Positions 25,508 through 62,884 of a DNA stretch of 64,000 nt are shown piece by piece. Below the pieces are notes generated by a model. The model made no database searches. It saw only the letters and a list, made by a program, of their open reading frames with translations, and was not told the origin of the DNA. Source of the stretch: Nannocystis sp. (GTDB lineage: Bacteria; Myxococcota_A; Polyangia; Nannocystales; Nannocystaceae); the NCBI RefSeq assembly GCF_016717175.1, contig NZ_JADKFZ010000004.1; one strand, written 5' to 3'. The first letter of the stretch is position 1; every line of letters starts with the position of its first letter. The position numbers were made by a program, and so were the translations under genes.

Positions 25508-28762
<3,255 letters not shown>

Positions 28763-28839
28763 CGGCGCAGGTGCCCGCGGCTTGCGTTCGCGCGGGGCCG
28801 CGGAGTAGGGTGTGCGCCCGTTCGCCCCAGGAAATACTC

Positions 28840-29421
28840 GTGAAGCCGATCCAGATCTGTCAGCACCTTGGCCAGGGACACATCGACGCGTACTACGACG
28901 AGCTGTCCGGCAAGGAAGTCCGTGCCGTCCTCAAGGCGGGTGGTTGCAGCGTCAACGTCCCGGAGACCGCGTACACCCAGTCCGCCCGCCGTCGCGCGTG
29001 GCGCAAGCGCTTCGACGCCGAGTTCGGCGGGGGCAACGATCAGCTGGCGCTGGCGCTGCTGCTCGAGTGGTTGATGCGCCACCACCGGAGCATGCTGGTC
29101 GACTACCTCGACTTCCTCGGCGTGAAGCACCGCCAGGGTGAGACCGACGAGGACTTCTGCGCCACGCGCGACGAGGCCCAGCTGCGCGAGGGCGTGGCGG
29201 AGCTGCTCAAGAAGTACCCGGCGGCGCATGTGGCCACCTACCTGCTGCTGGTCGGTCACCTGCAGGAGACGCCGGTCTACGACCAGACGCCCGAGGTGCT
29301 CACCTCGCTCGGGATGCCGGCCGACGCGGCGGCGAAGTACGTCGAGGCGCACAAGCTCTCGTACAAGCCCAAGGCCCAGCGCTCGCCGACGCCGATGATC
29401 ACCACGCAGCCGGCGGCCTGA
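28840..29421 (+). CDS. Hypothetical protein (193 aa), first gene of the MVP-containing co-directional group
   Basis: GTG at 28840 preceded by AGGAAA. Helical, charged and non-repetitive. Confidence 0.5.
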   Translation: MKPIQICQHLGQGHIDAYYDELSGKEVRAVLKAGGCSVNVPETAYTQSARRRAWRKRFDAEFGGGNDQLALALLLEWLMRHHRSMLVDYLDFLGVKHRQGETDEDFCATRDEAQLREGVAELLKKYPAAHVATYLLLVGHLQETPVYDQTPEVLTSLGMPADAAAKYVEAHKLSYKPKAQRSPTPMITTQPAA

Positions 29422-29747: not shown

Positions 29748-30643
29748 GCGAGCTCCCGCCCGAGCTGGTGTTCGCCAGCCCGCGCAAGCTGCCGCGCGCG
29801 GCGGACCTGCGGGGGCGGGTGGTGGTGCTCGACCTGGCCTTCGCGGCCGACGGCATGGGCGGGCCGGGCTTCGCCAAGATCACCGGCCGCTTCCTCAAGG
29901 AGCTCGGGCCGCGCCTGGCTCGCTGGGTCGACCACCACGACCACGACCTGCACGCGCAGTACCGCGGCGACGCCCGCTTCGTGCTGCACACCAAGGCCGA
30001 GCACGGCGCGTGCCCGGAGATCATCACCCCCGAGCTGGTCGCGCGGACCGGCCCGATCGACACGATCGTCGCCCACTTCGACCTCGACGGGCTGTACGCG
30101 GCGGCGAAGTGGATCCTCGGCGGACGCGAGCCCTACCCGGGGGCCGACGCCGACGCCCGCGCGGTCGACACCCGCGTCGGCGAGGTGAGCCCGCGGGCCC
30201 AGCTGATCGACAAGGCGCTGCGGGTGCACTTCGACGACGCGGTGCTCAAGCAGCGCATCGTCCACTGGCTGTGCCGCGGCCTGCGACCCGGGGTCGAGCA
30301 CGACACGATCGTCGCGGCGGCGGCGGACTTCGACCAGCGCGCGAGCGAGGCGGTCGCGCTGGCGTCGCGCTACACGGTCGAGGATGACATCGCCCTGCTG
30401 CACCTGCCGAGCCACCCGCGGCCCTTCGACAAGACGGAGCTGCTGCTGCTCGGACAGCGGCGGGCGAGCGTGGCGATCGTGGTCGACGGGACGACCGTCA
30501 ACATCGCGGCGGGCTTCGACAGCGGGCTCAACTTCGTGACGCTGCTCGAGCTCGGTGGCGGGATGCCGACGCGGGTGTCGGTGCCGCTGGCTCGCCTCGA
30601 CCTCGCGCTGACCAAGATCCGCGAAGCGCTGCGCTCGCGCTGA
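29744..30643 (+). CDS. Hypothetical protein (299 aa)
   Basis: TTG start overlapping the upstream stop. Contains a HHDHDLH segment but no confidently recognized domain. Confidence 0.5.
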   Translation: MSELPPELVFASPRKLPRAADLRGRVVVLDLAFAADGMGGPGFAKITGRFLKELGPRLARWVDHHDHDLHAQYRGDARFVLHTKAEHGACPEIITPELVARTGPIDTIVAHFDLDGLYAAAKWILGGREPYPGADADARAVDTRVGEVSPRAQLIDKALRVHFDDAVLKQRIVHWLCRGLRPGVEHDTIVAAAADFDQRASEAVALASRYTVEDDIALLHLPSHPRPFDKTELLLLGQRRASVAIVVDGTTVNIAAGFDSGLNFVTLLELGGGMPTRVSVPLARLDLALTKIREALRSR

Positions 30644-30863
30644 GCTCGTCCTGCAGGCACGCGCCGCTGTATCGTTTCGGTGCAGCGCGCCGGGCTGCAT
30701 CGAAACGATGCAGTCGTGCATCCAGGTCGCGCGCGCGAGTGCCCGCTCGCGTGCGGTTCTGGGTATTTCGCGGCGGCCCGCGGCGGCCTATCCTGGGCGC
30801 CTTCTGCGGGCCTTGCAGTGTGCCTGCCCACAGGAAGCCACACGGGAAGCCAGACGGGAAGCC

Positions 30864-55603: not shown

Positions 55604-57028
55604 ATGAAGCAACCGCAGGATGAGATGGTGTGGATCGACCACAACGGCGTCGCGCACCCGCTCGGCGAGGTGGCGACGGCCCGGATGGGCCAGCGCGAGG
55701 GGGCCTATCGGATGCTGCCCACGCCGGGCCACGTGGTGCTGCTGCGCTTCACCGGCAACGACGGTCGGCGCGACCTCGAGGACGGTCCGATCGTGCGGAT
55801 GGCCGGTGAGATCACGGCCAGCGGCGACATGGCCGACGTGCTCGCGGTGCTCGGGCACATCGGCACGCGCGGCGAGCTGGTGGTGATGGATGGCGAGGTC
55901 ACGCGCAGCGTGTTCTTCGAGCACGGCAACATCGTCGGCGTGCAGACCAACGCGGAGGACGAGCGCATCGGCATGCTCCTCTACAAGTACGGGGTGCTCA
56001 GCGAGGAGCAGATCCTCCCGGTGCTCGAGCGGGCCCGCAAGGGCGACCTGTTCGGCATGGCCGCGGTCGAGCTCGGCCTGGTCTCGCAGGATGTCATCTA
56101 CAAGTATCTGGCGCGCCAGGTCGAGGAGGTGGTGTTCGCGGTGCTCGCCGCGGCCGACGGCGCGTACTGCTTCCTCGACGGCTTCGACGAGGCGCGCCTG
56201 GCCTCGCGGCAGGTCGTCAGCGCGACCGCGCTGCTGATGAATCACCTCACGCGAATCGACGAGATCCGGCATCTTCGGCCCTGGATCCCGTCGGCGGAGT
56301 ACGTGCCGCTGCGCCTGGCGCCGCGCTCGGCGGTGGCCAGCGAGCAGGCGGTGGTGTGGGACGCGATCGACGGCATCAGCAGCGTCGGCGACATCGGTCG
56401 CGGCACCGGGCTCGGCGAGTTCGAGGTGACCAAGCAGCTGTTTCACCTGAGCCAGGCCCAGCTGGTGGCGATCCATCCGCCGAAGCTGCGCGGCGGGATC
56501 GGTGAGGTCGTCGAGCTGGCCAACGCCGGTCTGCGGGCGATCCACCAGGCCGCCGACGCGGGCGGGCGCGGCACGGCGCTGCGCAACAACCTCATCGCCT
56601 TCTCCCGCGGCGACTACGAGGCGCTGCTGCGCGGCGCCGGGCCCTTCGAGCACGGGGGCTTCGGCGCGCCCGCGCTCGTGGTCAACAGCGCGGGCCTCCG
56701 CCCCGCCTCCGAGGTCGAGACCTTCGTGCGCGAGATGCTCTACGACTACGTGTCCTTCGCGCTGTTCAGCGCGACGGCCTCGCTGGCCAACACCACGTTG
56801 TCGGCCGAGGTCGAGCCGCTGCTGGCCCGGCTGCGCCCGCTCGGTCAGTCGGGGCGCTATCTGGTCGGGCGTCGCCAGCCAGGTGGTCCCGGTGGCGGCG
56901 GTTTCGGGGGTGGCTTCGGTGGGGCCGGGGCGTCTGGGTCGGGCGTTCGCTCGAGCGAGGACTCGGACCCGGGCGGGGCGGGCTCGTCGGGCTCGGGCGG
57001 GGCGGACTCGTCGGGCGCGGCGCTCTGA
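55604..57028 (+). CDS. DUF4388 (PATAN-like) domain protein with G/S-rich C-terminal tail
   Basis: LAVLGHIGTRGELVVMDGEVTRSVFFEHGNIVGVQTNAEDERIGMLLYKYGVLSEEQ is a DUF4388 core. Confidence 0.75.
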   Translation: MKQPQDEMVWIDHNGVAHPLGEVATARMGQREGAYRMLPTPGHVVLLRFTGNDGRRDLEDGPIVRMAGEITASGDMADVLAVLGHIGTRGELVVMDGEVTRSVFFEHGNIVGVQTNAEDERIGMLLYKYGVLSEEQILPVLERARKGDLFGMAAVELGLVSQDVIYKYLARQVEEVVFAVLAAADGAYCFLDGFDEARLASRQVVSATALLMNHLTRIDEIRHLRPWIPSAEYVPLRLAPRSAVASEQAVVWDAIDGISSVGDIGRGTGLGEFEVTKQLFHLSQAQLVAIHPPKLRGGIGEVVELANAGLRAIHQAADAGGRGTALRNNLIAFSRGDYEALLRGAGPFEHGGFGAPALVVNSAGLRPASEVETFVREMLYDYVSFALFSATASLANTTLSAEVEPLLARLRPLGQSGRYLVGRRQPGGPGGGGFGGGFGGAGASGSGVRSSEDSDPGGAGSSGSGGADSSGAAL

Positions 57029-57044
57029 CGTATCCTCGCGGGCG

Positions 57045-58169
57045 ATGCCGGTCGACGACCCCCACGACCCCGCGGCGCCGACGACCCGCAAGCAGGTGTT
57101 CCCCTGCGGCCAGTGCGGATCGTCGCTGGAGTTCAAGCCGGGCAGCGACAGCATGCGCTGCCCGCATTGTGGGCACACCCAGGCGCTGCCCGGCGGCGCG
57201 GGCGGGGTGATCAGCGAGCACGACTTCCACGAGGGCATCGCTCGCGCGCGCCGCCAGCCGAGCGCCGCGCTCGTCGAGGGCGGCCACAACGTGCAGTGCG
57301 AGGGCTGCGGCGCGCAGACGGTGGTCGCCGGTCAGGCCGCGCGCTGCCCCTTCTGCGGCTCGCCGGTGGTGATGGCGATCCAGGAGCTCGGCGAGATCTT
57401 CACGCCCGAGAGCCTGCTGCCGTTCAAGCTCGACGCGCGCGCGGCCAAGGACCGCTATCAGAAGTGGGTCGGCGGCCTGTGGTTCGCCCCGAATGACCTC
57501 AAGACGCTGGCCAATCAGCACGGCATGGACGGCGTGTACATGCCGTACTGGTCGTACGATTCGAACACCACCACCCGCTACACCGGCGAGCGCGGCGAGT
57601 ACTACTACGTCAGCGAGACCTACCGCGACAGCAAGGGCGAGACGCAGACCCGCCAGGTCCGCCACACCCGCTGGTACCCGACCTCGGGCACCGTGCACGT
57701 GAGCTTCGACGACGTGCTGGTGTGCGGCTCGCAGACCCTGCCGCGCAAGCTGCTCGAGGGGCTGGAGCCGTGGGACCTGCCGGAGCTGCGGGCCTTCGAC
57801 GCCGGCTACCTCAGCGGCTTCGTCGCCGAGCGCTACAAGATCGGGCTGGAGGAGGGCTTCGTCGCCGCCGAGGCGCGCATGGTCCCGAAGATCCGCAGCG
57901 CGGTCGAGTCGGACATCGGCGGCGACGATCAGCGGATCGGCAACCTCAACATCCATCACGCCGATGTCCGCTTCAAGCACCTGCTGCTGCCGCTGTGGAT
58001 CTCGAGCTTTCGCTACAAGGAGAAGGCCTACCGCTTCACCGTCAACGCCCGCAGCGGGCAGGTCTCGGGCGAGCGGCCGTGGAGCGTGGTGAAGATCGTG
58101 CTGGCGGTGCTGGCGGTGATCGCGGTGATCGTGACGATCGCGGTGCTGGTCCAGAAGTACAAGCAGTAG
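57045..58169 (+). CDS. Double zinc-ribbon protein with unknown middle domain and C-terminal transmembrane anchor
   Basis: CGQCGSS...CPHCGH and CEGCGAQ...CPFCGS zinc ribbons. C-terminal TM (VVKIVLAVLAVIAVIVTIAVLV). ATG at 57045. Confidence 0.6.
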   Translation: MPVDDPHDPAAPTTRKQVFPCGQCGSSLEFKPGSDSMRCPHCGHTQALPGGAGGVISEHDFHEGIARARRQPSAALVEGGHNVQCEGCGAQTVVAGQAARCPFCGSPVVMAIQELGEIFTPESLLPFKLDARAAKDRYQKWVGGLWFAPNDLKTLANQHGMDGVYMPYWSYDSNTTTRYTGERGEYYYVSETYRDSKGETQTRQVRHTRWYPTSGTVHVSFDDVLVCGSQTLPRKLLEGLEPWDLPELRAFDAGYLSGFVAERYKIGLEEGFVAAEARMVPKIRSAVESDIGGDDQRIGNLNIHHADVRFKHLLLPLWISSFRYKEKAYRFTVNARSGQVSGERPWSVVKIVLAVLAVIAVIVTIAVLVQKYKQ

Positions 58170-58212: not shown

Positions 58213-59400
58213 ATGCTCGCGGCCCGCATGCGGCCCGTCCCGATCACCGCGCTCAGCCTGTGCAACGGCATGGGCATGACCACCGCGGAGGTGCTGGCGG
58301 GGCTGCGCGCGGGTCGCTCGGGGCTCGGGCCCTGTCCGCCGGAGATCGGGCTCGCGGGCGCGGCGACGGTCGGGGCGATGCCGGGGCCCTTGCCGCCGCT
58401 GCCGGCCGAGTTCGCCGCCTACGACACCCGGCAGGCCCGCATCGCCGCGCTCGCGCTGGCCGAGCTGGCCGGGCCGATCGAGCGCGCCAAGGGCCGCTGG
58501 GGCGCGCGTCGGATCGCGGTGATCCTCGGCACCAGCACCGGGGGCATCGGCGCGAGCGAGCTGGCCTACGCGCATCACCAGGCGCACGGCGTGCTGCCGG
58601 ACTGGTACTCGGTGGAGACCTCGCACGCGCTCGACGCGGTGCTGCCGGTGGTGTGCGGGCTGGCCGGGCTCGCGGGGCCGGCGTACATGCTGTCGACCGC
58701 GTGCTCGTCGTCGGCCAAGGTGTTCGCGGCGGCGCAGCGGCTCATTCACCTCGGGGTGTGCGACGCGGCGCTGGTCGGCGGGGTCGACAGCCTGTGCCAG
58801 CTGACGCTGCGCGGCTTCGCCGGGCTCGAGGTGCTGTCGCCGGCGCCGTGCCGGCCGTTCTCGGCGCTGCGGGCCGGCATCAACATCGGCGAGGGCGCGG
58901 CGCTGTGCCTGCTCGAGCGCGAGGGCGAGGGCCCGGCCCGCCTGCTGGCGGTCGGCGAGAGCTCCGACGCGTTTCACATGACCAGCCCGCACCCGGAGGG
59001 GCTCGGCGCGCGCCTGGCGATGGAGCGGGCGCTGGCTGGCGCGGGGCTGTCGCCCGGCGATGTCGACCACGTCAACGCCCACGGCACCGGCACGCGCCAG
59101 AACGACAGCGCCGAGGGGGCGGCGATCGCTGCGCTGTTCGGGCCGGGCATGCGGGTGGTCGCGACCAAGGGCTACACGGGGCATCAGCTCGGGGCGGCGG
59201 GCGCCACCGAGGTCGCGTTCACGGCGCTGGCGATCGCCCACGGCTTCGTGCCGGAGAGCGTCGGAGCGGCCCCGCCGGACCCGGAGATCGCGGTCCGGGT
59301 CACGACCCAGTTCGAAGCCTTGATCACGCGCGCGGCGATCAGCAACTCCTTCGCCTTCGGCGGCTCGAACGTCAGCGTGCTCGTGGGGGCGCCGGCATGA
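58213..59400 (+). CDS. Beta-ketoacyl-ACP synthase (KAS I/II-like)
   Basis: Active-site Cys in STACSSS and His/His in HMTSPHPEG / NAHGTGT. GFGG C-terminal motif. Real start probably at 58228. Confidence 0.85.
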   Translation: MLAARMRPVPITALSLCNGMGMTTAEVLAGLRAGRSGLGPCPPEIGLAGAATVGAMPGPLPPLPAEFAAYDTRQARIAALALAELAGPIERAKGRWGARRIAVILGTSTGGIGASELAYAHHQAHGVLPDWYSVETSHALDAVLPVVCGLAGLAGPAYMLSTACSSSAKVFAAAQRLIHLGVCDAALVGGVDSLCQLTLRGFAGLEVLSPAPCRPFSALRAGINIGEGAALCLLEREGEGPARLLAVGESSDAFHMTSPHPEGLGARLAMERALAGAGLSPGDVDHVNAHGTGTRQNDSAEGAAIAALFGPGMRVVATKGYTGHQLGAAGATEVAFTALAIAHGFVPESVGAAPPDPEIAVRVTTQFEALITRAAISNSFAFGGSNVSVLVGAPA

Positions 59401-60308
59401 GCGACGGTGGTGGCATCTCCTCAGCAGAGCGTGGGCCGGAGCGTGGGCTCGGGCTGTCGCTGCGCGGGCTCGGGCTGTGGACCCCGGGCTACCCCGACGC
59501 GCTCAGCTGGTCGCAGCGACATGTCCGTGGGGACAGGTCCAACGAGGCTGCTCCGAGCGCCCCGTCTGCGCTGGGCGCCGACGCCCCGCGGGCCGAGCTG
59601 CTGCCGCCGATGCTGCGCCGCCGGACCAGCCTGCTGACCCGCATGGCCGCCGAGGTCGCGGCCCAGGCGATCGCCAGCGCCGGCTTCGATCGCGCCGAGG
59701 TGACGACGATCTACGGATCGGTCTACGGCGAGATCCGGACCACGCTCGATCTCCTGGCCGCGCTGCAGGACCCGGCCGCGCCGCTGTCGCCGACCAAGTT
59801 CCACAACAGCGTGCACAACACGGCCGCCGGCTACGTGTCGATCGCGACCCAGAACCGGCGCGGCAACGCGGCCCTCACCGCCGGGCGCTCGACCCTGGCG
59901 ATGGGGCTGATCGAGTGCGCCGGGCTGATCGCGGCGGGGCAGGGGCCGACCGTGCTGGTGATCGCCGAGGAGACGCTGCCCGAGCCGCTGGCCGCCGGCC
60001 GCAGCTACGCGCCGCTGGCCGCCGCCTTCGCGCTCGCTGCCGCGGGCGCCACGGATGTTGGGGCTGTCCCGGGGGACATGTCCTCGCGGACCTGTCGCCT
60101 GGTACAGGCGAGCCGCGGCGACCCGGCTGTGCCAAGGCTGCCGGCCGCGCTGCTCGGCAACCCCTGCGCGCTGGCGCTGGCGCTGTGCGAGCTGGCGCTG
60201 CAGCCGGGCGCCGCGTGCCTGTCGCTCGAGCCGCACCTGCCCGCGGGCGGCTGGTGCATCGAGCTCGACGCCCGCGACGGCGCGAAGGGCCCGGAGGCGG
60301 CCGCGTGA
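59397..60308 (+). CDS. KS-like partner protein (chain-length-factor-like, active-site Cys not evident)
   Basis: Thiolase-fold similarity ([16 protein letters not shown]...) without the C-H-H triad. Start ATGA-coupled to the upstream KS and stop GTGA-coupled to the downstream dehydratase. Confidence 0.6.
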
Positions 60309-60856
60309 GCGAGTTCCCGCCCGTGCAGGAGCTGGTGCCCCAGCGGCCGCCGATGCTGCTGCTCGACGCGGTCACGGCCTGGGACGGCGTCTCGCTCGAG
60401 TGCGTCACCACCGTGCGCGCCGACTGGCTGCTGGTCGAGGCCGGGCGCATGCCGGCGGCCGGGCTGCTGGAGGTGATGGCGCAGGCGGTCGCGGCGATGC
60501 ACGGACTGCAGGGCCACGCGCGCGGCGAGCCGGTGCGCGTCGGCCTGCTGACGGGCTGCCGCGAGCTGCGCCTGCACGCGCCGGCGGTGCCGGTCGGCAC
60601 GTCCCTGCGGGTGCGGGCCCGCCAGGTCGTCGACCTCGAGGCGGCGGCCGAGTTCGCGTGCAGCGTGGTCACGGCCGAGGGCCGCGCGCTCGCCGAGGGC
60701 GCGCTGCAGGTGGTGCGGGGCGAGCCAGCGGCCGCGGGCGTAGCGACGGCCGCTGGCTCCGCTGGATCCGCTGGATCCGCTGGATCCGCTGGATCCGCTG
60801 CATCCGCTGCATCATGGACCGCGCCCGGCGGACCCGAGGAAGCGCAATCAACATGA
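60305..60856 (+). CDS. Hotdog-fold (FabA/FabZ-like) dehydratase with an (AGS)n C-terminal tail
   Basis: [11 protein letters not shown]...LLEVMAQA hotdog motif. The tail [18 protein letters not shown] is encoded by a 9-bp tandem repeat (60751-60812). Confidence 0.65.
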
Positions 60857-61575
60857 GACCGAGAGCACTCGTCACCGGCGCGAGCCGTGGCATCGGCGCG
60901 GCGATCGCAGAGGCGCTCGCCGCCGCCGGACACCCCGTCCTGATCAACTACCGCAGCGGGCACGCGGCCGCGGAGGCGGTCGCCGAGAAGATCCGGAGCG
61001 CCGGCGGGCAGGCCACGCTGTGCCCCTTCGACGTCGCCGACGCGGCGGCCAGCGCGGCCGCGATGGCGGAGATCCTCGCCGACGCGGCGCCGCTCGGGAT
61101 CGTCGTCAACAACGCCGGGGTCGCGCGCGACAACCCCTTGCCGGCGATCGAGCCCGACGACTGGAACCTGGTCCTGCGCACCACGCTCGACGGGTTCTAC
61201 AACGTGACCCGGCCGGCGGTCATGCCGATGGTGCGGCGCAAGTGGGGCCGCATCGTCAACATGAGCTCGGTGTCGGCGCTGATCGGCAACCGCGGCCAGG
61301 TCGCCTACGCGGCGGCCAAGGCCGGGATCCTCGGCGCGACCAAGTCGCTGGCGCTGGAGCTGGCGCGGCGCGGCATCACCGTCAACGCGGTCGCTCCCGG
61401 TCTGATCGAGACGGACATGATCAAGGACGTCCCGCTCGAGCACGTGATGCCGCGGATCCCCGCGCAGCGGCTCGGTCAACCGCACGAGGTCGCGGCGCTG
61501 GTGGCATTTTTGTGCAGCGACGCGGCCGGCTACATCACCGGGCAGACGATCGGGATCAACGGCGGGATGGCATGA
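60853..61575 (+). CDS. fabG: 3-oxoacyl-ACP reductase (SDR, FabG-like)
   Basis: TGASRGIG Rossmann motif and the S...YAAAK catalytic triad. 240 aa. Confidence 0.85.
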
Positions 61576-62801
61576 ACGACGACGCATACGAGGTGATCAT
61601 CGTCGGCAGCGGGCCCGCGGGCTCGACCGCCGCCAACCTGCTGGCCCAGGCCGGGCGCCGGGTGCTGGTGCTCGAGCGCGAGAGCTTCCCGCGCTTCCAC
61701 ATCGGCGAGTCGCTGCTGCCGATCGACCTGCCGCTGTTCGAGCGCCTCGGCCTCACGATCGACGCCAGCGCCTACAAGTTCAAGCAGGGCGCCGAATTTT
61801 GGGACGAGCGCACCGGCGACTTCGCGTTCTTCAGCTTCGCCGACGCGATGCCCGGCACGCCCTCGCACGCGTGGCAGGTCGAGCGCGCGCTGTTCGACGA
61901 CCTCCTGGCCCGCCAGGCGATCGCCCGCGGCGCGGAGATCCACTTCGGCGAGGCGGTCACGGCGATCGAGCTCGGCGCCGAGGCGGTGGCGGTGCGCAGC
62001 GAGCGGGCCAGCTACCGCGCCCGCTTCGTGTTCGACGCGACCGGTCAGGACGCGTGGTTCGCCCGCCGGGCCCGGACGGTCGCGCCGATCCGCGAGCTCG
62101 GTCGCGCCGCCGTGTTCACCCACTTCGAGGGCCTGTCAGCGGCCGCGATCGACGAGATCGGGGCCCAGGGCAACATCAAGGTGCTGCTGGTGCCCGACGG
62201 CTGGCACTGGATCATCCCGCTGGTCGGCGGCCGCCTGAGCGTCGGCCTCGTGAAGTGGCGCGGCAAGCTCGACGAGGAGGCGCTGGAGGCCGCGCTCGCC
62301 GCGTCGCCGCTGATCCAGCGCCTGTGCGCCGGGGCGCGGCGCGGCCCGACGCGGACGATCGCCAACTGGTCGTACAAGAACCTGCGCCCGCACGGCCCGC
62401 GCTGGGCCTGCATCGGCGACGCGGCCGCGTTCCTCGATCCGGTGTTCTCGTCCGGCGTGTCGCTGGCGATGCTCGGCGCCGAGCGGGCCGTCGACCTGCT
62501 GCTCCCGGCGCTCAGCGCTGCCGACGAGGCGGCGCCCGAGCTGATGGCGCCGTGGTCGTCGCACATGCAACCAGCCTACGACGCGTTCGAACAGCTCATC
62601 CGCCGCTTCTATCACACGCGGATGGTGCACCACCTGTTCTTCGCCGCCGAGCCCGACCCGGCGCTGCGCCGCGGCCTCATCAGCGTGCTCGCGGGCGACG
62701 TGTGGCGCCGCGATAACCCGTTTCAGGCGATGCTGGAGAGCTCCCGTCTGCAGCCCCGAGCACCCACGATATTGCCAGACCCGGAGACACAACAAGATTG
62801 A
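61572..62801 (+). CDS. FAD-dependent oxidoreductase of the halogenase / geranylgeranyl-reductase-like family
   Basis: [11 protein letters not shown] dinucleotide motif. GD..A/F motif ([15 protein letters not shown]). Start overlaps the fabG stop. Confidence 0.75.
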
Positions 62802-62884
62802 TACGTAATCCGCATTACGGAACTTACCGAATGTGATGTTGATGCGCCCCTGGCCAGGGTTGTTGCAATTTCGCGCCAAAGATT

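Follow-up and report, generated by a model that had tools for sequence, protein, structure and literature searches.

Aryl polyene-type polyketide synthase genes coupled to a putative flavin-dependent halogenase in Nannocystis, probably separated from the remainder of their pathway

Aryl polyene (APE) clusters count as the family of biosynthetic clusters with the widest distribution in bacteria, and they are treated in the literature as single compact loci. In a stretch of 64,000 nucleotides from Nannocystis sp. (contig NZ_JADKFZ010000004.1 of assembly GCF_016717175.1), the whole of which is referred to below as the window, five intact open reading frames (ORFs) on the plus strand between positions 58213 and 62801 encode a ketosynthase (KS), a chain-length factor (CLF), a dehydratase (DH), a ketoreductase (KR) and a predicted flavin-dependent halogenase. 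The question that this locus raises is to which pathway such a set belongs and where its partners are encoded. The explanation that we consider likely is that an APE type II polyketide pathway has here its iterative chain-building core, together with a halogenase for tailoring, and that in a Nannocystis-like lineage these five genes have become detached from the other genes of their cluster. The window has a GC content of ~72%, and its best protein matches are Nannocystis and Nannocystaceae-like metagenome sequences.

The five genes follow each other with four stop/start overlaps of 4 nt, ATGA at 59397, GTGA at 60305, ATGA at 60853 and ATGA at 61572, exactly as they had been read in an earlier note on this DNA that was made from its letters alone. 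Identical 4-nt overlaps are called in the homologous loci L001-L004 and L092 (L numbers denote entries of a tblastn architecture table of 93 sequences, to which L096 was added later). Because the overlaps recur in homologous loci of other organisms, they are conserved and not a chance product of GC-rich sequence. We regard the five genes as probably forming one translationally coupled operon, a degree of confidence that applies to the best explanation as a whole. In comparison with L001 the dN/dS values of all five genes lie between 0.15 and 0.37, which are approximate figures since a GC content of ~95% at third codon positions compresses dS, and the purifying selection that they indicate supports a function for the five genes.

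The first gene (58213..59400, 395 aa, PF00109 and PF02801) encodes a KS of the ApeO type. It reaches 441 bits on the model NF006618 against a cutoff of 407, and fails both the FabF models (200 bits against a cutoff of 494) and the FabB models (107 against 630). The ApeO chains 6qsp_A (248 bits) and 7f28_B (232 bits) are its best solved structures, with FabF-type structures at no more than 160 bits, ApeR-type structures (4ewg, 7f27) at ~100 and FabB at ~98. The catalytic triad is formed by Cys164 (TACSSS), His290 (HGTGT) and His324 (GHQLG), invariant in 6 orthologues. The second gene (59397..60308, 303 aa) encodes a half-size CLF of the ApeC type, which matches PF13723 (Ketoacyl-synt_2) with E = 6e-34 and does not contain the C-terminal KS domain PF02801. 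Its profile finds the ApeC chains 7f28_A and 6qsp_B as the first Protein Data Bank (PDB) matches, and its homologues are named 'beta-ketoacyl synthase chain length factor' by NCBI. No invariant Cys is present among 9 homologues, and the CLF could not be mapped onto the active-site Cys of the KS by BLASTP or by hhalign of small alignments. The missing C-terminal KS domain and the missing invariant Cys lead us to predict that the CLF is non-catalytic. The pair of an active KS and a catalytically degenerate KS-like partner that the earlier note had described is consequently recovered, and the clustering with FabF/FabB that had been set beforehand as the outcome speaking against an APE assignment is not what was found, ApeO and ApeC structures matching best. 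In some homologues of ~405 aa (P0033, P0035, P0039, P0045 and P0071) the CLF (PF13723) is fused to the ApeP-like DH (PF22817), for which the window has two genes that overlap.

The third gene (60305..60856, 183 aa) encodes an ApeP-type hotdog dehydratase subunit, in agreement with the dedicated hotdog dehydratase expected by the earlier note. It passes the ApeP-like family PF22817 with 44 bits against a cutoff of 27, and its best solved structure is 6qsr_B, the ApeP-type partner of chain 6qsr_A (label: 'AMP-dependent synthetase and ligase'). Hotdog dimers of the FabZ/FabA type build their active site from both subunits, one contributing a His and the other a Glu or Asp. The DH of the window keeps the FabZ-type Glu (LLEVMAQ) and has an Arg in place of the catalytic His; among 27 DH homologues the Glu is conserved and the His position is occupied in most cases by Arg, Lys, Glu or Gln. 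The ApeI-like domain, which aligns to FabA, FabZ and 6qsr_A, has the His (GHFDGAPVLPGV) and no acidic residue at the Glu/Asp site, and in N. radixulma, where it is fused to a ligase, it reads GHFDGAPVLPGVAQLT. Going by these residues, the half-sites of the ApeP-like DH and the ApeI-like domain complement each other, which agrees with the ApeI-ApeP heterocomplex whose structure has been solved. Because of this complementarity the DH of the window would depend on a partner from another locus, and the cassette probably cannot work alone. The ApeI-type partner is absent from the 64-kb window; a ligase fusion with an intact His motif is found at a second locus in N. bainbridge, N. radixulma and L093. 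The DH gene also contains a 9-bp tandem repeat on the plus strand (60750..60813, 7.1 copies, 96% matches) which encodes a (Gly-Ser-Ala)n C-terminal tail, the homologues being of 144-153 aa and without a tail versus 183 aa here.

The fourth gene (60853..61575, 240 aa) encodes a putative NADPH ketoreductase of the short-chain dehydrogenase/reductase (SDR) superfamily, with the Ser...YxxxK motif readable in its translation. It scores 336 bits on the FabG model NF004200 (cutoff 273) and 280 bits on the flexirubin FlxB model, below the cutoff of 340. Its best PDB matches, in a range of 231-249 bits, are 7czc, the ApeQ structures 7CAW/7CAX/6NRP of A. baumannii (244 bits) and 4IIU of E. coli CFT073 (231 bits), above the housekeeping FabG of A. 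baumannii (7CAZ, 166 bits). The SDR reductase announced by the earlier note is thus of the ApeQ type by its best solved structures. All four polyketide synthase (PKS) proteins therefore match APE enzymes best (ApeO, ApeC, ApeP and ApeQ), and the view that the locus is a type II PKS-like aryl polyene cassette and not housekeeping fatty acid synthesis gains support. By its four core proteins the block can be assigned to the APE type II PKS family, although locally it does not amount to a complete APE cluster.

The fifth gene (61572..62801, 409 aa) encodes a flavin adenine dinucleotide (FAD) enzyme which carries FAD-binding signatures and passes PF04820 (Trp_halogenase) with E = 5e-28 and 98.6 bits against a cutoff of 21. 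Its best PDB matches are, in this order, 3nix, 8zop ('Halogenase') and then Bmp2, CndH, ChlB4, CmlS, Mpy16 and PltA; tryptophan halogenases align to it over the N-terminal FAD fold only. The elements G12-S-G14-P-A-G17 (GxGxxG), Lys71, W211-H-W213-I-I-P216 (WxWxIP) and G282-D283 are invariant in 6 orthologues of 52-85% identity. Lys71 aligns with a Lys of Bmp2, 8zop and 3nix, and we take it to be the equivalent of K79 of PrnA, the conserved catalytic Lys. Such a Lys together with the WxWxIP motif tells halogenases from monooxygenases. The carrier-protein-dependent halogenases Bmp2, Mpy16, PltA and CndH have in common with the window enzyme a length of ~410 aa, the motifs and an alignment over the whole length, and are its distant paralogues (E 1e-31 to 1e-39). 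With all flavin-halogenase motifs in place and this whole-length match, what had been called halogenase-like is predicted to be a true flavin-dependent halogenase and to belong to the carrier-protein-dependent phenol/pyrrole class. Its substrate here would be an aryl- or polyenoyl-acyl carrier protein (ACP), not a pyrrolyl- or tyrosyl-carrier protein. The gene for the halogenase occurs in the window, in L001-L003, in L004, in L092 and in L011.

Where, then, is the rest of the pathway? A tblastn search of the 64 kb (E ≤ 1) found no APE ACP, ligase, lyase, thioesterase, acyltransferase, LolA, MMPL, DUF3261 or second KS, only noise and one match to glycosyltransferase family 2 (GT2), and it bears out the earlier statement that no ACP, acyltransferase or exporter is visible in the window. 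The GT2 match, at 15.8 kb of the window and 42 kb from the cassette, was rejected as a generic glycosyltransferase (36% identity over 106 aa). In L001-L003, which share the synteny of the window, and in L004 (N. pusilla) and L092 (N. radixulma), where the flanks are different, the five genes are accompanied by nothing APE-related within 10 kb. Over the 93 sequences and L096, the cassette stands alone in the window, L001-L004, L011, L012, L092 and L096 and nowhere else; where the flanking sequence of the other lineages is long enough, the KS-CLF pair has ACP, ligase, LolA or MMPL genes at a distance of no more than 10 kb.

In Enhygromyxa (L007, L013-L015 and L017) and in Nannocystaceae strain ST9 (L010/L016) the cluster is contiguous, in the order ACP, ACP, ligase-ApeI, GT2, lipid-A-type acyltransferase, aromatic ammonia-lyase, LolA, MMPL, DUF3261, KS, CLF, DH, KR, a second KS (KS2) and halogenase, with the counterparts of the window genes at the distal end. 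In N. bainbridge (L009), N. radixulma (L091) and a metagenomic relative (L093) a first half of this cluster is found whose last gene is DUF3261; the genes that come next are unrelated. This second locus of the relatives holds the ACP, the ligase-ApeI fusion, the aromatic ammonia-lyase, a thioesterase, a glycosyltransferase, the lipid-A-type acyltransferase, LolA, MMPL and DUF3261. Both halves were seen in one genome in N. radixulma only, where contig JAQNDN010000024.1 (829,612 bp) contains the first half at ~745.7-756.0 kb and the cassette at ~359.9-364.2 kb, on opposite strands and ~380 kb apart. Orthologues of the ligase-ApeI protein with 80-86% identity were found in N. pusilla, N. punicea, N. 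exedens, N. radixulma and two further strains, that is, in all the named Nannocystis species found; a scan of genome contigs with a CLF alignment gave no Nannocystis species genome among the at least 600 matches listed. We infer that the genome of the window holds a second locus too. The absence of ACP and accessory genes from the extended region, which the earlier note had named as a point against an APE assignment, is indeed observed within ±10 kb in every close relative, but it does not overturn that assignment, a second locus being present in the same genomes.

The ApeR-like KS2 follows the KR in every contiguous Myxococcota cluster and is absent from every split-type cassette locus; in the window no gene can be hidden between KR and halogenase because the two genes overlap. 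In vitro, ApeO-ApeC needs no ApeR to make the fully elongated polyene, ApeR doing no more than raise the throughput (PMC8358021), so the loss of KS2 seems tolerable and compatible with function. Several features of the two halves in relatives may be recorded here. In N. pusilla (L004 7552-10004) the stop of glyA, the gene for serine hydroxymethyltransferase (SHMT), overlaps the start of the KS gene by 4 nt, and the cassette may be co-translated there with this gene of primary metabolism; in loci with the synteny of the window, the SHMT gene lies downstream on the opposite strand. A second SDR/KR-like gene, with ~40% identity to the KR of the window, is divergent from the ACP gene with which the first half begins in Nannocystis-type genomes, as seen in L091 (8096-8875, minus strand) and in L093 (2064-2843, minus strand). 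Strain ST9 has two tandem MMPL exporter genes (L010 7565-12397), and Enhygromyxa sp. (L007) and Nannocystis have one.

On this basis a pathway can be proposed. The ammonia-lyase of the second locus would convert tyrosine into a 4-coumarate starter, as suggested by the lyase gene and by the annotation of the ligase as belonging to the 'photoactive yellow protein activation family', and the ligase would load 4-coumarate on the ACP. The heterodimer of the KS and the half-size CLF would then carry out the repeated condensation of malonyl-ACP onto the aryl-acyl-ACP, the ApeQ-type reductase would reduce each β-keto group, and the ApeP-type subunit providing the Glu would pair, across the two loci, with the ligase-fused ApeI-like domain providing the His, leading to a dehydration in each round and to a conjugated polyene. 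The halogenase may add chlorine or bromine to the aryl (phenol) head group while this is bound to the carrier, or to the chain. By analogy with the APE pathway of E. coli, the thioesterase, the acyltransferase, GT2, LolA, MMPL and DUF3261 would serve in release, anchoring and export of the lipid.

With the APE PKSs of Xenorhabdus doucetiae, A. baumannii and E. coli CFT073 the window shares the KS with its half-size CLF, the ApeP-type DH and the ApeQ-type KR, each of them as the best solved match, and their accessory set (ACP, ligase-ApeI, GT2, acyltransferase, LolA, MMPL, DUF3261 and thioesterase) is found in the Nannocystis-type relatives. Unlike in those systems, the core of the window is detached, has no ApeR-like second KS at the locus and has a halogenase appended, and the first half of the relatives comprises an aromatic ammonia-lyase and one ACP only. 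The contiguous clusters of Enhygromyxa salina, Enhygromyxa sp. and ST9 contain the orthologues in the same order, with 57-60% identity to the KS and 51-54% to the halogenase of the window; they are single loci with KS2 between KR and halogenase, whereas the window type is split and without KS2. APE clusters reported by antiSMASH have been described in Enhygromyxa and Plesiocystis (PMC6226438); for Nannocystis, the literature searched gave no description of one, whether split or not.

The earlier note had left the choice between an aryl polyene-like and a xanthomonadin-like cassette. The 'yellow'/xanthomonadin cluster of Lysobacter comprises a KS (ORF17) and a novel CLF (ORF16), with a halogenase in Xanthomonas (PMC3691225). 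Common to these clusters and the window are a KS with an always adjacent PF13723 partner, a halogenase often beside the pair, and the aryl polyene product class. However, the halogenases inside the Xanthomonadales clusters share only 24-28% identity with that of the window, the loci there have a GT2 gene after the KS-CLF pair with DH and KR elsewhere in the cluster, and xanthomonadin takes its starter, 3-hydroxybenzoic acid (3-HBA), from XanB2, a synthase of 3-HBA/4-HBA, instead of which the relatives of the window carry the aromatic ammonia-lyase. The block is not a xanthomonadin cluster proper; the APE part of the earlier suggestion stands, the nearest systems being E. coli/Vibrio-type and Nannocystaceae APE clusters with ammonia-lyase and xanthomonadin proper being more distant. 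The flexirubin pathway of Bacteroidota shows other points of contact, namely the score of the KR on the FlxB model, below its cutoff as given above, and the origin of 3nix, the best solved relative of the halogenase, in Cytophaga hutchinsonii. C. hutchinsonii is a producer of a flexirubin-type pigment, and flexirubin biosynthesis likewise starts from ammonia-lyase-derived 4-coumarate. Unlike flexirubin clusters, the two halves in the relatives showed no dialkylresorcinol (DarA/DarB) genes, and in the literature searched we found no paper linking flexirubin, ammonia-lyase and halogenase.

Other explanations of the five genes have to be weighed against this one. That they are housekeeping type II fatty acid synthase genes (FabF/FabB, FabZ and FabG) would account for the generic domain families that both systems have in common and for a KR that passes a FabG-named NCBIfam model, but the KS falls far below the FabF and FabB cutoffs, the obligatory PF13723 partner is something that fatty acid synthesis does not have, the best structural relatives are APE enzymes and a halogenase is translationally coupled to the block, so that we give this idea practically no credence. 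A decaying, non-functional remnant of a rearranged APE cluster is scarcely more than conceivable: although essential partners are missing locally, KS2 has been lost, the halogenase has been lost in some relatives and the DH gene has acquired its repeat-encoded tail, the five ORFs are intact with their catalytic residues and overlaps kept, dN/dS stays in the range given above, and the block is conserved in at least nine loci of several lineages. As regards the fifth enzyme alone, a flavin monooxygenase or reductase acting in ring hydroxylation or double-bond reduction would fit a best PDB match annotated only as 'flavoprotein/dehydrogenase', the sub-threshold matches to geranylgeranyl reductase and QhpG monooxygenase models, and a score on the CmlS halogenase model of 152 bits where the cutoff is 900. 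We nevertheless think this unlikely, given the Lys and the WxWxIP motif invariant in the six orthologues, the eight of its ten best solved matches that are experimentally named halogenases, and the wide margin on PF04820.

A further alternative would be a cassette that became autonomous, having been co-opted after its detachment to work with another carrier, for instance the fatty-acid carrier AcpP, and another starter towards a different, possibly halogenated, unsaturated acyl product. Points in its favour are the neighbourhood (RecQ ... Zn-ribbon ... cassette ... DUF4215 ... SHMT), unrelated and yet stable over lineages whose CLFs are 48-73% identical, the overlap called with glyA/SHMT in N. 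pusilla and the absence of the KS2 gene. Yet the DH has no catalytic His, which the distant ApeI-like domain carries, the ligase-ApeI gene is kept in all the named Nannocystis species that the ligase search yielded, and the KS-less first half is found in L009, L091 and L093. Furthermore, ApeO-ApeC of A. baumannii binds its cognate ACP1 with nanomolar affinity (PMC8358021). An autonomous cassette is consequently improbable in our judgement.

The explanation that we prefer, an APE core working with a second locus, has points of its own against it, which are gathered here. The second locus is shown in relatives, and the organism of the window is represented by 64 kb only, an exact look-up of its halogenase sequence having given no entry. 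The literature searched does not record any product, pigment or halogenated APE from Nannocystis. The solved structure closest to the FAD enzyme, 3nix, is a flavoprotein of C. hutchinsonii with no assigned function. The halogenase gene is absent from L012 and L096 (GCA_016712315), which have the same synteny as the window, and halogenation is therefore dispensable; this pattern of presence and absence fits the halogenase as an optional tailoring enzyme. The further-reaching reading that takes everything together, with an operon acting in trans, an obligate DH heterodimer encoded hundreds of kb apart, a single KS-CLF without ApeR and a halogenated, coumarate-primed APE lipid new to myxobacteria, or else with an operon rewired to another carrier or product, appears doubtful to us.

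Taken for what it is, the cassette is an ordinary APE core of a known pathway with a two-locus layout as a modest twist, and the understanding of how aryl polyenes are made is unchanged by it. It means that the catalytic core of an APE system would be separable from the carrier-protein, starter and export genes and yet conserved under purifying selection, and that the ApeR ketosynthase and the halogenase would be naturally dispensable modules. Because of this separation, cluster-finding software would miscall both halves. Strains with and strains without the halogenase occur naturally in the lineage and could be compared in order to find the halogenated product. The natural halogenase-minus cassettes are those of the metagenome-assembled genomes L012 and L096, with the arrangement RecQ ... 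Zn-ribbon ... KS-CLF-DH-KR ... DUF4215 ... SHMT.

The genes around the cassette appear to be neighbours only. The gene directly upstream (57045-58169, 374 aa, plus strand) has weak zinc-ribbon matches only, and is preceded by a gene for a DUF4388/PatA_N protein with a weak match to a cyclic di-GMP-binding (MshE-like) motif, the pair extending over 55604-58169 (plus strand). This pair stands before the cassette in the window, in L001-L003 and in L012; in L096 a 372-aa gene without Pfam match takes the zinc-ribbon position and the DUF4388 gene was not seen. Both genes were rejected as cluster members because neither stands beside the cassette in N. pusilla, N. radixulma or L011, and Nannocystis sensu stricto has neither of them there. 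The position of the zinc-ribbon protein in the earlier note is correct; a role as a conserved part of the cluster is not retained. Downstream, from ~62903 to the end of the window, lies an unrelated gene for a Cys-rich DUF4215-type lipoprotein. A scan for sigma-70 promoters and intrinsic terminators was uninformative in DNA of 72% GC, giving two sites at the level of chance, of which the terminator-like one lies within the KR gene and the promoter-like one on the wrong strand. Directly after the stop of the halogenase gene (62803-62818) a short AT-rich inverted repeat, CGTAAT-CCGC-ATTACG, is seen in a local GC content of 68%; it was read by eye and is not called by the terminator scan.

Elsewhere in the window, a 926-aa ORF (30612-33392, plus strand) contains domains typical of the eukaryotic major vault protein (MVP_shoulder, 2e-28; Vault_3, 1e-8) and Band_7. 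It is flanked by genes for an nSTAND1 NTPase/β-propeller protein (34557-38306) and a Ser/Thr kinase-TPR protein (25508-28930, minus strand).

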